From a phage: a DNA stretch of 64,000 bases. Below the pieces are notes generated by a model that did no database searches, had not been told where the DNA came from, and saw only the letters and a list, made by a program, of their open reading frames with translations. The translations under genes were made by a program, and so were the position numbers. The stretch lies in NCBI GenBank assembly GCA_036253495.1, contig GCA_036253495.1_4125.1, one strand, 5' to 3'. This document shows, in pieces, positions 22,638 to 27,428 of the stretch (positions are counted from its first letter, which is position 1; every line of letters begins with the position of its first letter).

Positions 22638-22731
22638 AATGTGCCTTAGATCTAAGTTAGTTTATGAAATATTTATGAAATACATTCCTAAGAAATTTTT
22701 AAGTACTTTTTTATAAAAAAGATTAGATATT

Positions 22732-22761
22732 TTGAGACACTTTTAAATTGCGTGCTATAAT
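22732..22761 (+). promoter_or_regulatory. strong sigma70-type promoter (TTGAGA-18 nt-TGcTATAAT) firing into ORF-free region
   Basis: -35 TTGAGA at 22732-22737, extended -10 TGCTATAAT at 22753-22761. Confidence 0.6.
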
Positions 22762-22766
22762 GTTTC

Positions 22767-23246
22767 ATGTAGTACTGACAATCCTGTTGAATGCAGAAAT
22801 GCATATAAATTAGAACCTAATCCACTCGAAAATGTAGAGGGTAGATGAGCAGTTCAACAGTGCGATGAGCAAAAGAAACCCGTTAGATGTGGGCATATTA
22901 TGAACCCCTCACGGCGACACGGCTCAATAAAGAACTCCGATAAGCATACAGAGAGTTCCTCGATAGATGTATAAGGATCGCACCTTACCAGATATGCTAA
23001 GGGAGTTTGATGATTCATTTCATTAAACAGCCTGAAGTTTGATTGTATAGACTTTCAGGTGAGTGTCAGGATGTTTAAGACTGACGACCGTTGCACATGA
23101 CTGCGATAGAGAGAAACAGAGCAACCCGCTTTCGTTCTTAATATTTTTTACAATATAATTACGTTTAAATTTTAAGAAATTCGCAATACAATAATACCGA
23201 TGCCATCAGCGTCAAGAAACAGAGACTTAATTGTCTCTTTTTTATT
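22767..23246 (+). ncRNA. candidate non-coding RNA (about 480 nt) between promoter and terminator; identity unknown
   Basis: No ORF longer than about 25 codons with an RBS on either strand; several stem-loops (e.g. CCTGAAGT...ACTTTCAGG, GTCAG...CTGAC); ends at hairpin AGAGAC-TTAATT-GTCTCT plus T-run at 23220-23246. Confidence 0.3.
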
Positions 23247-23473
23247 ATCTTCATTCCCCTGCGGGGGGATGAAATATCCTCAACAAATCCCGTCAAGTAT
23301 TAAATCATTTAAAGTTCTTTATAATTATATTAAAATGAATATGAGTTAACGTAGTTAACGAATATTCTTCAGCTAACGAATGAAATGAGTTAGATGAGTT
23401 CAATATAAATCAAATGAATTCCTTCAAGAATAAATCTTTTAAGATCATAATTTCTTTCATCTACTTTGTAAGT

Positions 23474-23519
23474 AAAAACCCAAAAAAACAAAAACAAAAA
23501 ACCAGCAACAATGTGCTGG
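23474..23519 (-). terminator. rho-independent terminator (minus strand)
   Basis: Minus-strand hairpin CCAGCA-CATTGT-TGCTGG followed by a long T-run (plus-strand A-rich tract 23474-23501). Confidence 0.6.
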
Positions 23520-23532
23520 CTTCTTATGAGTA

Positions 23533-23694
23533 TTAGTGCTTCTCGTTCATCTTCTTTACTTTCTTATTGTATGCCTTAATAAGCATATCTCTGTCATTTA
23601 CTGGCATATTAAGTAGAGTTGCATAATCGACATTATCTACATAAACAGCAGCATCCATAAGGGCATTTTTAATATCTGATTTATTCAACTCCAT
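23533..23694 (-). CDS. small ORF (53 aa) or -1 frameshift extension of the upstream 295-aa protein
   Basis: Frame open from the slippery T TTT TTC site inside the upstream gene to a TAA 14 nt before the terminator; internal ATG at 23694 with weak RBS. Confidence 0.3.
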   Translation of the reverse strand: MELNKSDIKNALMDAAVYVDNVDYATLLNMPVNDRDMLIKAYNKKVKKMNEKH

Positions 23695-23711
23695 ATCATC
23701 CAGAAGTTCTT

Positions 23712-24599
23712 TTATTTCTTCTGGGTTTGAGAAGAGAAGCTGAGATCGAAAAAATGAGTAGGGTCATACTTTAATCCAGTAAGTTCCCATTGATGCTGAC
23801 ATTCAATACATTCAACTTCCATTGTATGCGATACACCAATCTCTAGTACTTCATCCATTTTCTCTCTGATTTGCTTGATCACTTCTTTTGATTGAGTACC
23901 TAACCATTCACTTATGAATTTCTTATCTGATACTTCATCACCATCAGGAGTAATTACCTTATCAATAACTCCAGCAATCATATCAAAGTTTAGTTGTGCC
24001 ATGTTTTCAAATACTTCAGAAAACATTTTAATTTTATCATCTTCAGAAATATCAATAGTACTTTCAAGATACTTAGTTTTTTGCTGTTCAGCTAACATAC
24101 GTTGAGAAAACTCTGAATATTCTTTCCAAGTAAGTGGTCTGAACTGAAGAGACAAACCATTATTAAGATCAATACTAGGAATTTCAGTAAAAGATTCTGC
24201 CGTTTCCAATAGATAAGAAAGATCACGTTCAAAACGGCCTTCTTTGGAACATGATGGACATACGACATTGACATCATAACTGGTTTCTTTGGATGCTAAC
24301 TTGATAGCAATAAGAATTTGCTCAACATCATTGACAAAAAGCTCATCTGCGTTTAGAATGTTTGGTACACAGTTTTCGATAACAGATGACACTGCACTAC
24401 CATTGAGTAACATATCAGGTGTATTGAGCATCATTTCGTCACGAGCACTACGAGCACAGACACCACATTTAATGCCTTTGCTCCCCAATACACCATCTTT
24501 GTACTGGAAAATGTTGTTAGTGACGAGTTTAGTACTAATTTCTTCGATTTTTGTGTATTTTGCTAACGGGTTCATTGACATAATACTTTCTCCATGCAA
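23712..24599 (-). CDS. hypothetical protein with three CxxC pairs (possible Zn-binding)
   Basis: 295-aa ORF; CGVC, CPSC and CIEC motifs; no recognisable NTPase motif. Confidence 0.6.
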   Translation of the reverse strand: MHGESIMSMNPLAKYTKIEEISTKLVTNNIFQYKDGVLGSKGIKCGVCARSARDEMMLNTPDMLLNGSAVSSVIENCVPNILNADELFVNDVEQILIAIKLASKETSYDVNVVCPSCSKEGRFERDLSYLLETAESFTEIPSIDLNNGLSLQFRPLTWKEYSEFSQRMLAEQQKTKYLESTIDISEDDKIKMFSEVFENMAQLNFDMIAGVIDKVITPDGDEVSDKKFISEWLGTQSKEVIKQIREKMDEVLEIGVSHTMEVECIECQHQWELTGLKYDPTHFFDLSFSSQTQKK

Positions 24600-24658
24600 T
24601 AATTATGAAAGTATTTATGTATGTTCAAAACTTCAAAATCACCCAAGAGGAATATTTT

Positions 24659-25147
24659 ATGATAAAGACAACAATCAAACGTTTGTTCCAAGCCTTTGGT
24701 ATCTTTATGGTTGTTATGTTAGTAATCGGTATGATTGTTCCGAAAAGCGAAACATCCACAACTAAAGAATCAGAGTACAAAGAGCAGTTAACTAAACGTG
24801 AATTACCAACACAAATTGTTAGCTACAAAGGTAAACTGTATAACGAAGATCCTAATGAGGAACATTTAAAATGGACATTCATCCAATTCACTGTTAACGG
24901 TGATGAAGTACTGATGGGTCAGACATATGAATCATGGAGTTATATTGGAAGTACTGCATCTGGATATGATGTTTATTACAACATTAACGACTTCACTTAT
25001 ACTGTCGGCGGTGTTCAAAAGACAGTAAAACTTGAAGGTACATTGTATGTTAATAGAGAAACAAACTCTATCATATTCAGTAATAAAAATGTTAGTGACG
25101 GTTCACCAAAACGAACCTATAGTGCAGTACTGGAACCACGATACTAA
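24659..25147 (+). CDS. small membrane-anchored protein (N-terminal TM helix), unknown function
   Basis: Start moved to ATG with AAGAGGAA RBS (MIKTTIKRLFQAFGIFMVVMLVIGMIVP...); hydrophobic N-terminus then soluble domain. Confidence 0.5.
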   Translation: MIKTTIKRLFQAFGIFMVVMLVIGMIVPKSETSTTKESEYKEQLTKRELPTQIVSYKGKLYNEDPNEEHLKWTFIQFTVNGDEVLMGQTYESWSYIGSTASGYDVYYNINDFTYTVGGVQKTVKLEGTLYVNRETNSIIFSNKNVSDGSPKRTYSAVLEPRY

Positions 25148-25256: not shown

Positions 25257-27428
25257 ATGGCTGTAAACAACAGTGATTACTTACTACAACAGATAGTGAA
25301 TAAATCTAATGATACCGTAGATGGTCTTTCAGCTATACGTGAATTGTTAGCAGAAAGTTTAAAGAATGATAAAAAGAAAAATAATGGTGGTGGTAACCCA
25401 TCACCTGGCGATTCATCTGGACCAAGTGGTGGTGGACGCGGTTCTCGTGGTAATTCATCCTCTATGGGTAAAATGTTCAGAGCAATGTCCAGCGAAATGA
25501 CAAACGTTGGTAAAACAATGATGAGTACTTCAGCGAATGTCAGTACTGTCATTAACTCAATGGGTATGAGTGCATCATCCGTAGCTGGCTCTCTTTCTAT
25601 GATCCCTGGTCCTGTAGGAATGGCAGCATCAGCATTTAAAATGGTTGCTGATGTAGGGATGGCAGTATATAACGTAATGAACGCCCAGCTTGAAATGTAC
25701 AACAGAGTCAACAGTGCGGGTGTTTCTCTTGCTGAAGGTTATGGCTCTTTGCTAAAAGGTTCAGGTTCAGCGTTAATGTCTATGGATCTATTCAGTGAAG
25801 TAATATCAACTCATAGTGATGTTATTGCACAATTGGATGGTTCGTATGGAGATGGCGTTAAGGAATTTGGTAAATTGTTAGGTGTAGTTCAAAATGCCCA
25901 AGATAAACTTGGCCTATTTGGTATGTCACAAAAAACTTTATCAGATTTAGCAGCACGTAACATCAAAATTCAAAAACAATTTGGTGGTGCAGAACTAGTA
26001 AGGAATATAAACCAAGCACAAAGTACCCAAGAGTTAATTAAAACTATGTCTACTTTTAGTAAGACAATGGGTATGTCAATTGATGAATTACTTAAAAAGA
26101 CACAATCACTTGATAAATCATTTGATGCAAGAATACTAAAAACTACACTAAACAACTGGGTGGGACTATCAGAAGAAACCGCAACATTAACCACTAAAGC
26201 ACTTACCGAAGCGGCAGGTGGTATGGGGGATATGGGTACTGATTTCCTAAGATTGATTAGCCACAGAATATCAATTGGTGGTGTTCCTGATGATTTATTA
26301 TCTCCAATGATTAGCGAATTCGCTGACCTTGGTGAGAACATGGTTAAGTCTGGTGTAACCGATGCAAAAGCTATACGTGAAGCACAATATCAGTGGGTGA
26401 AGAAAAACAGAAAACGCGTTGAAAAAGATATGGAAGATATGCAACGAAGTCAAAACTTCACCGCTGCCGCATTTGCTAAGCAAATGTTAGATATGGAAGC
26501 TGCAATTAATGCTGACAAAAATCGACCAGCAGATAAAATCGCAGAATTTACTGATAGATTGAACAGATGGGTCAGTACTGAATTTGTTGCTCCATTCAAT
26601 AAAATGTATGCTGATGTTCAAAATAATGTTGTTGATTATTTGACAGCAATTGCAGATCGTACCGATAGTGCATGGGGATTTATTTGGGAATTGGCTAAAG
26701 ATGGATTTGGGTTAGTTCCAATATTCAAGGATGCAGTTGCTTATGTTGATCGTGTCGGTAATGAATTTGTATTGTGGCTTGAAGGATTAGGTGCAGATAT
26801 ATTTGGTGATACATACACTCAAGTTTCAAAAGCATTCGATGACTTCATGAAGAATCTCATGGATTTACCTGGAAAGTTATGGGATAAAGTAAAAGGATGG
26901 TTTGGTTCAGATGATAAATCTGAAAAACAAGAAGAACCTAAAAAGAAAATAGAAGAGAAAGCTACATCTTTCTGGGATTCTATTGGTAATTCAGTAGACG
27001 ATTTCACAAAATTTGTAGAAGAAAAAACACTTGACTTCCAAAAATGGAAATCTTCTAAATTATATACACCACCTAGACCATTTAACGTAGATAATGCATA
27101 TCGAGTCTTGGGCTATGAACCACCTAAAAACGTCCAGACTACAGTAATGCCAAATACACCACCTATGATGGAATTAACTCGTAAACATTATGATAAATCC
27201 GCATGGAAACCTGGTGAAGCACCATTCCCACCAGAACCAGATCGTGATATAAAATCTCTGGTAACGCCACAAAACGGAACTATAAATAATGACATGAGTT
27301 CAGAAGAGATCAAAGAAATTTTTAAACGTCTAGCAGAAATGAGTGAACAATCACTCGCAGCAACAAATCAGACAAATAATTACTTAAGAACAATTTCTGA
27401 AAATACACAAGGTGAACGCAATAGTTAA
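25257..27428 (+). CDS. large virion-associated protein (Gly/Ser-rich N-terminus, Met-rich segments); tape-measure-like or internal/ejection protein, unresolved
   Basis: 723-aa ORF preceded by CATAAATA late-type motif (25217-25224); immediately upstream of portal gene. Confidence 0.4.
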   Translation: MAVNNSDYLLQQIVNKSNDTVDGLSAIRELLAESLKNDKKKNNGGGNPSPGDSSGPSGGGRGSRGNSSSMGKMFRAMSSEMTNVGKTMMSTSANVSTVINSMGMSASSVAGSLSMIPGPVGMAASAFKMVADVGMAVYNVMNAQLEMYNRVNSAGVSLAEGYGSLLKGSGSALMSMDLFSEVISTHSDVIAQLDGSYGDGVKEFGKLLGVVQNAQDKLGLFGMSQKTLSDLAARNIKIQKQFGGAELVRNINQAQSTQELIKTMSTFSKTMGMSIDELLKKTQSLDKSFDARILKTTLNNWVGLSEETATLTTKALTEAAGGMGDMGTDFLRLISHRISIGGVPDDLLSPMISEFADLGENMVKSGVTDAKAIREAQYQWVKKNRKRVEKDMEDMQRSQNFTAAAFAKQMLDMEAAINADKNRPADKIAEFTDRLNRWVSTEFVAPFNKMYADVQNNVVDYLTAIADRTDSAWGFIWELAKDGFGLVPIFKDAVAYVDRVGNEFVLWLEGLGADIFGDTYTQVSKAFDDFMKNLMDLPGKLWDKVKGWFGSDDKSEKQEEPKKKIEEKATSFWDSIGNSVDDFTKFVEEKTLDFQKWKSSKLYTPPRPFNVDNAYRVLGYEPPKNVQTTVMPNTPPMMELTRKHYDKSAWKPGEAPFPPEPDRDIKSLVTPQNGTINNDMSSEEIKEIFKRLAEMSEQSLAATNQTNNYLRTISENTQGERNS

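Follow-up and report, generated by a model that had tools for sequence, protein, structure and literature searches.

How many proteins are made from one baseplate gene of a jumbo phage is the question raised by a 64,000-nucleotide stretch of phage DNA (NCBI GenBank assembly GCA_036253495.1, contig GCA_036253495.1_4125.1), which is referred to here as the window. The window shares ~99% identity with Escherichia phage A4, a Rak2-like jumbo myovirus (Asteriusvirus, 355 kb). Its minus strand carries a gene of the PF12322 family that stops shortly after a run of six T, and the −1 frame stays open from that run nearly to a terminator-like hairpin. Comparison with related loci makes it highly probable that this single PF12322 gene is subject to programmed −1 ribosomal frameshifting and would yield a short and a long product. 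That the shift is ribosomal, that it is of low efficiency, and that the products chaperone the tape measure or the baseplate hub is what we infer from these comparisons. The features of the locus are the following.

23712 to 24581, minus strand: zero-frame gene for the short product of 289 amino acids (aa), a PF12322 "T4_baseplate" protein and T4 gp26 homologue (Pfam, PHROG and the A4 annotation)
24590 to 24593, minus strand: Shine-Dalgarno-like GGAG, 8 nt upstream of the ATG at 24581 (read from the sequence)
23748 to 23754, minus strand: slippery heptamer T_TTT_TTC (U_UUU_UUC), codons CAT TTT TTC (H276 F277 F278), in phase X_XXY_YYZ
23712 to 23747, minus strand: zero-frame tail DLSFSSQTQKK and TAA (stop at 23712–23714), 11 codons past the heptamer
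23533 to 23754, minus strand: −1-frame open reading frame (ORF) of FF, 71 further codons and TAA (stop at 23533–23535), the predicted C-terminal extension of the long product
23533 to 23694, minus strand: 53-aa ORF annotated in databases ("hypothetical protein" A4_1), from the ATG at 23694, the 3′ part of the −1-frame extension
23494 to 23527, minus strand: intrinsic-terminator-like hairpin and T-run closing the transcription unit after the −1-frame stop (terminator scan)

The PF12322 gene is present in a single copy in the window, and each phage record has one matching place. Its short product matches Pfam PF12322 (E=2.5e-24, 86.6 bits with a gathering cut-off of 24.5) and the PHROG family phrog_150, "baseplate hub" (E=3.9e-34); the A4 record names the 289-aa gene "baseplate hub subunit". 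The protein has conserved cysteines, CPxC...CxxC, and an AlphaFold2 model of it reaches a predicted local distance difference test score of 86, with values below 50 in the zero-frame tail. Database names over this locus include "Portal protein" and "prohead core scaffolding protein and protease", and the CxxC pairs have led to misleading automatic names such as "Lead, cadmium, zinc and mercury transporting ATPase" (Yersinia phage fHe-Yen9-04) and "ribosomal protein S27E" (JGI).

Translation likely begins at the ATG at 24581, which is preceded by GGAG, is the start given in the A4 record, and agrees with the aligned N-termini of homologues. Products from this start are 289 aa (short) and 349 aa (long); the sizes of 295 and ~355 aa given in the original prediction rest on an unlikely TTG start. 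The 3′ end of the gene reads AAG TAT GAC CCT ACT CAT TTT TTC GAT CTC AGC TTC TCT TCT CAA ACC CAG AAG AAA TAA, with the in-phase heptamer where that prediction had placed it. Read in the −1 frame from the heptamer, the sequence gives FFRSQLLFSNPEEIK..., 73 codons in all, again as had been claimed, and the extension matches phrog_18291 (E=2e-28). The two products would be told apart by predicted tryptic peptides: only the −1 product would give the junction peptide YDPTHFFR, followed by SQLLFSNPEEIK, and YDPTHFFDLSFSSQTQK would mark the zero-frame product.

The position of the terminator was also correctly described. Its extended stem begins 6 nt, and its G+C core ~14 nt, after the −1-frame stop, which places it ~190 nt after the zero-frame stop. 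The terminator scan of the region found two terminator-like sites versus 0.4 expected. An equivalent hairpin, CCAGCA...TGCTGG with a T-run, is present in phage 121Q and an Erwinia phage, and a terminator is annotated there in UE-S1.

Conservation of the heptamer is the first line of evidence. Seventeen cultured lineages from at least five genera were compared: A4, 121Q, UE-S1, RaK2, Munch, pEa_SNUABM_47, fHe-Yen9-04, CBB, GAP32, XbC2, Kaldavass, XaC1, Vibrio 2.275.O, Atu_ph07, Phosso, PA5oct, RsoM2USA, and Xoo-sp13. Their hosts are Escherichia, Klebsiella, Salmonella, Erwinia, Yersinia, Pectobacterium, Cronobacter, Xanthomonas, Vibrio, Agrobacterium, Sinorhizobium, Pseudomonas, and Ralstonia, and the identity of the hub protein among them falls to 23–30%. 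At the same position, 15 of the 17 have an in-phase T_TTT_TTC and the other two have T_TTT_TTT. Longer T-runs occur in Xoo-sp13 (T7, 2237–2243) and RsoM2USA (~T9, about 1984–1993). Environmental relatives were collected from IMG/VR in a protein-based scan with peptide patterns that exclude the site, which yielded 80 loci with 37–100% identity to a distant branch; all 80 have an in-phase TTTTTTC followed by G. A query with the Vibrio phage found no relatives in IMG/VR. A separate scan with the nucleotide pattern TTTTTTCGN6GCTTCT returned mostly chance matches (22 of 80 were genuine among the matches listed) and is left out of the unbiased statistics.

Codon usage separates the constraint on the nucleotides from that on the protein. 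F277 and F278 are two of only 13 invariant columns of the family alignment, and the heptamer has zero entropy in the alignments. In a set of 69 non-redundant junctions ascertained through protein similarity, TTT is always the first Phe codon and TTC is the second in 67, whereas TTC accounts for 25% of the Phe codons in the rest of these genes. A single tRNA-Phe decodes UUU as well as UUC. All 69 junctions have T as the wobble base just ahead of the run, in nine different codons (His, Arg, Asn, Ser, Tyr, Val, Ala, Thr, and Asp), versus 37% elsewhere. These figures indicate that the heptamer is conserved at the nucleotide level beyond the need of the protein sequence, and far above chance.

The coding phase changes at the same point. 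In the cultured and environmental loci, the zero-frame stop lies 1–11 codons past the site, depending on the lineage. The −1 frame is always open for 70–82 codons, is closed within a few codons upstream of the heptamer, and in nearly all lineages starts with the peptide FFR.(R/K/Q)LL. Positional entropy is highest at the zero-frame wobble position upstream of the heptamer and at the −1-frame wobble position from +1 to +30, and this switch is seen in the clade of the window and in other clades alike. In the window, the interval from +1 to +30 lies upstream of the ATG at 23694. Matches of the extension in tblastn start at its residue 1 in 74 of 74 phage records. The zero-frame tail, with its variable length of 1–11 codons, is probably a read-out by ribosomes that do not shift, its sequence unconstrained.

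The heptamer is also of a kind on which bacterial ribosomes are known to slip. U_UU.U_UU.Y falls in the class H_HH.U_UU.Y, whose −1 efficiency in E. coli ranked with the highest of the heptamers measured by Sharma et al. (PMC4066793); insertion sequence (IS) elements make use of it, and it is under-represented in the genes of E. coli (PMC4066793).

Downstream RNA structure is best seen far from the window. In a large environmental clade represented by 40 equal-length sequences aligned without gaps (stem alignment A2), columns 11–26 pair with columns 69–84 in a long-range stem. Here, 88% of cells are paired, versus 30–59% when the 3′ partners are slid, and seven pairs show compensatory double changes; the covariation score is 0.204 versus 0.098 for shuffles, with 0 of 500 shuffles reaching it. 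RNAalifold independently gives a 10-bp core of this stem, which spans 10–16 bp and lies 6 nt after the heptamer. When the clades are mixed, alifold returns no structure, the register differing between subclades. A second environmental clade has compact hairpins of the form RGCUUCU.../...AGAAGCY, also with a 6-nt spacer, and Atu_ph07 and Phosso have very stable versions of the downstream stem (−33 to −35 kcal/mol). At about +57 to +66 in five IMG/VR loci (L099 and L104–L107), both stem arms are replaced (CGCCUCCU / AGGAGGCR); their 3′ arm contains a perfect Shine-Dalgarno-like AGGAGG, which might also contact 16S rRNA.

The clade of the window also has a conserved context immediately past the heptamer, a possible contributor to the shift.

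23735 to 23747, minus strand: conserved block past the heptamer, with G at 23747 (66 of 69 junctions) and GCTTCT at 23735–23740, equivalent in position to the 5′ stem arm of distant clades

In the Rak2-like clade, only the context G + N6 + GCTTCT is invariant. The RGCTYY block is constrained at the nucleotide level even here, where its pairing partner is not conserved. Two Leu codons lie 8–13 nt past the heptamer as CTT or CTC followed by CTN or TTG in 65 of 69 junctions, whereas CTT and CTC together make up 22% of Leu codons elsewhere. Inspection of the sequences read revealed no upstream Shine-Dalgarno-like stimulator.

The products themselves resemble two proteins of phage T4, gp26 and gp51, which are described as "hub assembly chaperones" in a review of the T4 tail (PMC3004832). 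PF12322 covers the whole product of T4 gene 26 (208 aa), which stops right after the FF motif (...KEFFELL*). The product of gene 51 (249 aa) has PF12322 in residues 1–201 (E=4e-52) and then a C-terminal extension of ~48 aa. When a profile of 89 conceptual trans-frame products is aligned with one of 92 gp51 homologues, the two are colinear through the frameshift junction. The extension profile alone matches the C-terminal region of gp51 in hhalign with P=2.5e-5 and a score of 29.2, a score reached by none of 200 scrambled-column controls (10.7 ± 2.1, maximum 18.6). This homology is seen only by profile-profile comparison; a sequence-profile search of the T4 ORFs with a hidden Markov model (HMM) of the extension found nothing. 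A second precomputed Pfam domain, PF28602, is reported on the C-terminal extension of the gp51 family (P0066–P0157) and is not reported for the jumbo-phage small ORFs; this Pfam entry may already give the extension a name.

The trans-frame architecture is thus present as an ordinary protein in T4, and the jumbo phage has a single PF12322 gene, which argues that the short product is the analogue of gp26 and the long product that of gp51, in the short/long logic of tail assembly chaperones (TACs). PMC10885494, which refers to Vladimirov, Gautam & Davidson 2022, describes the TACs of T4-like phages as one short gene and one longer fusion gene. Poly-T slippery sequences in the TAC-N genes of T4-like phages are mentioned, on the strength of cited literature, in PMC12846349.

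The mechanism that would follow is simple. A majority of ribosomes would read CAU UUU UUC GAU... and stop 11 codons on, which would give the 289-aa equivalent of gp26. A minority would slip back by one base while tRNA-Phe occupies UUU in the P site and UUC in the A site, and both tRNAs would re-pair with UUU. The shifted ribosomes would go on with CGA UCU CAG... for 71 codons and make a 349-aa protein, which would have the PF12322 domain and a C-terminal helical extension, the architecture of T4 gp51. The short and long proteins would presumably act at a fixed ratio in the assembly of the baseplate hub and of the tape-measure complex encoded next door. In the clade of the window, slippage may depend on the heptamer alone, possibly with help from the conserved G/GCUUCU context, and a low basal level of shifting would suit a "catalytic", gp51-like product.

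Several observations weigh against this reading. The first group concerns the structure predicted for the window itself.

23685 to 23743, minus strand: window-specific predicted fold, with an outer stem 23736–23743 / 23685–23692 (4 nt past the heptamer) that encloses 23718–23724 / 23700–23706

This fold has a minimum free energy of −18.3 kcal/mol, with z=−2.3 against dinucleotide shuffles (7 of 200 as stable) and z=−1.0 against codon shuffles. It is only marginally better than shuffles, and no conserved structure was found in this clade: in 12 Rak2-like sequences, 51% of its cells are paired versus 49% in shuffles, and RNAalifold finds no consensus structure. The efficiency of the shift could therefore be very low. 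The inner CCAGAAG/CTTCTGG stem, noted in the original prediction, does exist at 23718–23724 / 23700–23706; it is not a conserved element (36% of cells paired in the same 12 sequences), and a local CTTCT/AGAAG hairpin finds no support among them either. Further points concern the decoding and the family. If RNA polymerase added an extra U at the T-run, the identical protein would result. Stop-start overlaps of the type ATGA/TAATG occur in about 11 of 91 junctions, where termination-reinitiation is possible. The assignment of gp26 and gp51 as TACs comes by way of papers that cite Vladimirov, Gautam & Davidson 2022, and fold searches with the PF12322 model gave no link to lambda-type TAC structures.

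Transcriptional slippage is the alternative that survives best, and it is unlikely. RNA polymerase would add one U at the T6 run, and standard translation would then make the same 349-aa protein. Trans-frame products derived from slippage are known (PMC5009743). The site is a homopolymer, and the two lineages with longer runs, Xoo-sp13 and RsoM2USA, are the best candidates for a contribution of slippage. Productive slippage by bacterial RNA polymerase usually needs runs of about 8–9, whereas 67 of 69 junctions have six T and then C, no more and no fewer, and only these two lineages have a longer run. Selection for slippage should favor longer runs and not a fixed, in-phase X_XXY_YYZ. The covarying stem 6 nt downstream of the heptamer in the distant clades has the geometry of a classical ribosomal −1 stimulator, and experiments in E. 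coli show U_UU.U_UU.C to be efficient as a ribosomal motif (PMC4066793).

It is about as unlikely that the extension is instead an independent small gene of 53 aa, expressed from its own start or by termination-reinitiation, with the heptamer a by-product of a conserved Phe-Phe pair. Databases annotate the ORF as separate wherever they annotate it, a PHROG family (phrog_18291) exists for it, and the overlaps mentioned above count on the same side. The lack of any in-frame fused version in the jumbo-phage and environmental branch (53 clusters and an exhaustive search) also fits a separate gene. Against this stand the wandering positions of both the zero-frame stop and the first ATG. In 91 non-redundant junctions, over the first 39 codons of the −1 ORF, the first in-frame ATG is at codon 4, 5, 8, 11, 15, 17, 21, 22, 33, 35, or 39, or is absent. 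A Shine-Dalgarno-like tetramer lies upstream of the ATG of the small ORF in only 9 of 86 junctions, and in 33 of 91, a start at the ATG would cost at least 32 codons of a conserved domain of ~75 codons. Gene callers place the N-terminus at differing residues, and the small ORF is not annotated in RaK2 and PA5oct, where none is callable. The stop-start overlap does not appear to be a conserved feature. The FFR.+LL peptide and the −1-frame wobble periodicity both start at the heptamer; a Phe-Phe pair alone leaves the TTT-TTC codons (67 of 69) and the T wobble (69 of 69) unexplained, and T4 gp51 carries both parts in one chain. The ATG at 23694 proposed earlier as a start is present, with no Shine-Dalgarno-like motif upstream and no conservation of its position, and the annotated 53-aa ORF is most likely an artefact of annotation.

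The weakest alternative, an indel error in the T6 run of what would be one continuous ORF of ~350 aa, was suggested earlier and gains some credit from the error-prone nature of homopolymers and from the clearly coding −1 frame, but it can practically be discarded. An independent A4 assembly has the identical T6 run, and the frame break recurs in each of the ~170 loci compared, which stem from a variety of laboratories, technologies, and metagenomes and include every related phage record and 80/80 environmental loci. Searching with the conceptual fused protein gave 53 homologue clusters, all of 276–297 aa. With the 73-aa extension as the query, HMMER run exhaustively over 1.84 billion representatives, in place of a word-indexed protein search that gave two matches, found 10 matches, all of them stand-alone (51–73 aa) and none fused.

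Comparison of orthologues, the check proposed with the original prediction, has therefore uncovered neither a single continuous ORF nor a conserved, separately initiated small gene, so that both of its alternatives fail, and the C-terminally extended isoform made by a −1 shift is favored by the comparative evidence.

The surroundings of the gene are in keeping with a role in tail assembly.

25257 to 27428, plus strand: 723-aa tape-measure-like virion protein, counterpart of T4 gp29 (phrog_14121, E=2e-245)

This gene is divergent from the PF12322 gene and 676 nt away from it, which is not the canonical position of a chaperone gene immediately upstream on the same strand. Homologues of the 723-aa protein carry the name "putative tape measure protein" or a note of similarity to a tail tape measure protein, and it is presumed to be the client of the chaperone. 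The virion proteome of phage CBB contains 29 peptides from its homologue, CBB_251; the PF12322 homologue, CBB_250, is absent from the CBB virion mass spectrometry list in which this neighbor is present. The papers searched contained no proteomic evidence of the trans-frame protein. A divergent arrangement is also found in T4, where gene 26 diverges from genes 51-27-28-29. The annotated start of T4 gene 28 lies 56 nt inside the 3′ end of gene 27 (L023, 8349–8404), upstream of the tape-measure gene 29; with the annotated internal-start product 26′ of gene 26, this is a further case of overlapping decoding in the cluster.

Between the PF12322 gene and the tape-measure-like gene, a 180-aa ORF (24605–25147, plus strand) encodes an N-terminal hydrophobic segment. 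It is hypothetical in A4, is not found at that position in 121Q and UE-S1, and has no match in Pfam, PHROG, or NCBIfam. On the other side, ~850 nt between the terminator and an endonuclease VII gene (22638–23493) contain no ORF longer than 54 aa, and the corresponding part of the UE-S1 record bears a repeat_region annotation. Over the region, Rfam gave sub-threshold matches only, which overlap the terminator, and NCBIfam gave none.

A −1 frameshift in a TAC gene is a classical type of signal, and part of the finding in jumbo phages may already be covered by the 2022 paper on T4-like TACs. A joined coding sequence is found in none of ~20 annotated jumbo-phage records inspected, the word "frameshift" is absent from the genome papers on this clade, and a 2016 review of recoding names neither gp26, baseplate, nor jumbo phages (PMC5009743). 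A family-wide case would be added to the rule that long-tailed phages make the short/long TAC pair by −1 frameshifting, and the phages concerned, jumbo relatives of the T4 type, had seemed either to lack the pair or to encode it in another way. The need of T4 for the paralogous genes 26 and 51 would be explained, as relatives would make the two products from one gene. The "hypothetical protein" annotation in ~20 jumbo-phage records and many metagenomic contigs would be corrected. The U_UUU_UUC sites with and without a covarying stem also form a natural series for the study of frameshift efficiency in bacteria.

A more tentative and rather doubtful extension is that the single gene with a −1 frameshift is a so far unreported, and perhaps the ancestral, form of T4 gp26/gp51, the T4 pair being an "unfolded" frameshift gene, and that the stimulator of the Rak2-like phages is non-helical, for example an mRNA-rRNA contact or an effect of the nascent peptide. 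If the ancestral part were true, T4-type phages would join the universal frameshift rule of tail chaperones.

Three known systems help to place the locus. IS elements of the IS1 and IS3 families share with the window the use of U_UU.U_UU.C among their heptamers and hosts of the E. coli type, and at their sites a downstream hairpin or pseudoknot at short spacing acts as the stimulator (PMC4066793). The proteins and their biology are unrelated; a transposase is made there, whereas the product in the window would be a virion-assembly factor.

The −1 frameshift of lambda and other TAC genes was reportedly described by Levin 1993 and Xu, Hendrix & Duda 2004, and that of P2 E/E+E′ by Christie 2002. 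In lambda gpG/gpGT, as in P2 E/E+E′ among myoviruses, the gene that shifts adjoins the tape-measure gene, and its −1 shift takes place close to the 3′ end, on a heptamer that is in phase (PMC5009743, PMC12846349). An abundant short form and a rare long form share their N-terminus, and the arrangement is kept across divergent phages without sequence similarity (PMC5009743, PMC12846349). The window differs in that no sequence or fold similarity to lambda-type TACs was detected and that transcription of the gene runs away from the tape-measure gene. Its short form, at 289 aa, is far larger and carries a zinc-ribbon-like Cys motif, and the heptamer is U_UUU_UUC rather than G_GGA_AAG.

T4 gp26/gp51 are the closest counterparts. 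In both T4 and the window, the proteins belong to the PF12322 family, the gene is divergent from the tape-measure cluster, and the FF motif is at the same position; the short protein is the domain alone, and the long one is the domain with a homologous C-terminal extension. T4 has two separate paralogous genes, no slippery heptamer (the equivalent site in gene 26 reads GAG TTC TTT GAG), and the internally initiated 26′. The window phage, unlike T4, would use one gene and a frameshift, with an extension of 71 rather than ~48 aa and a domain with ~80 extra residues.

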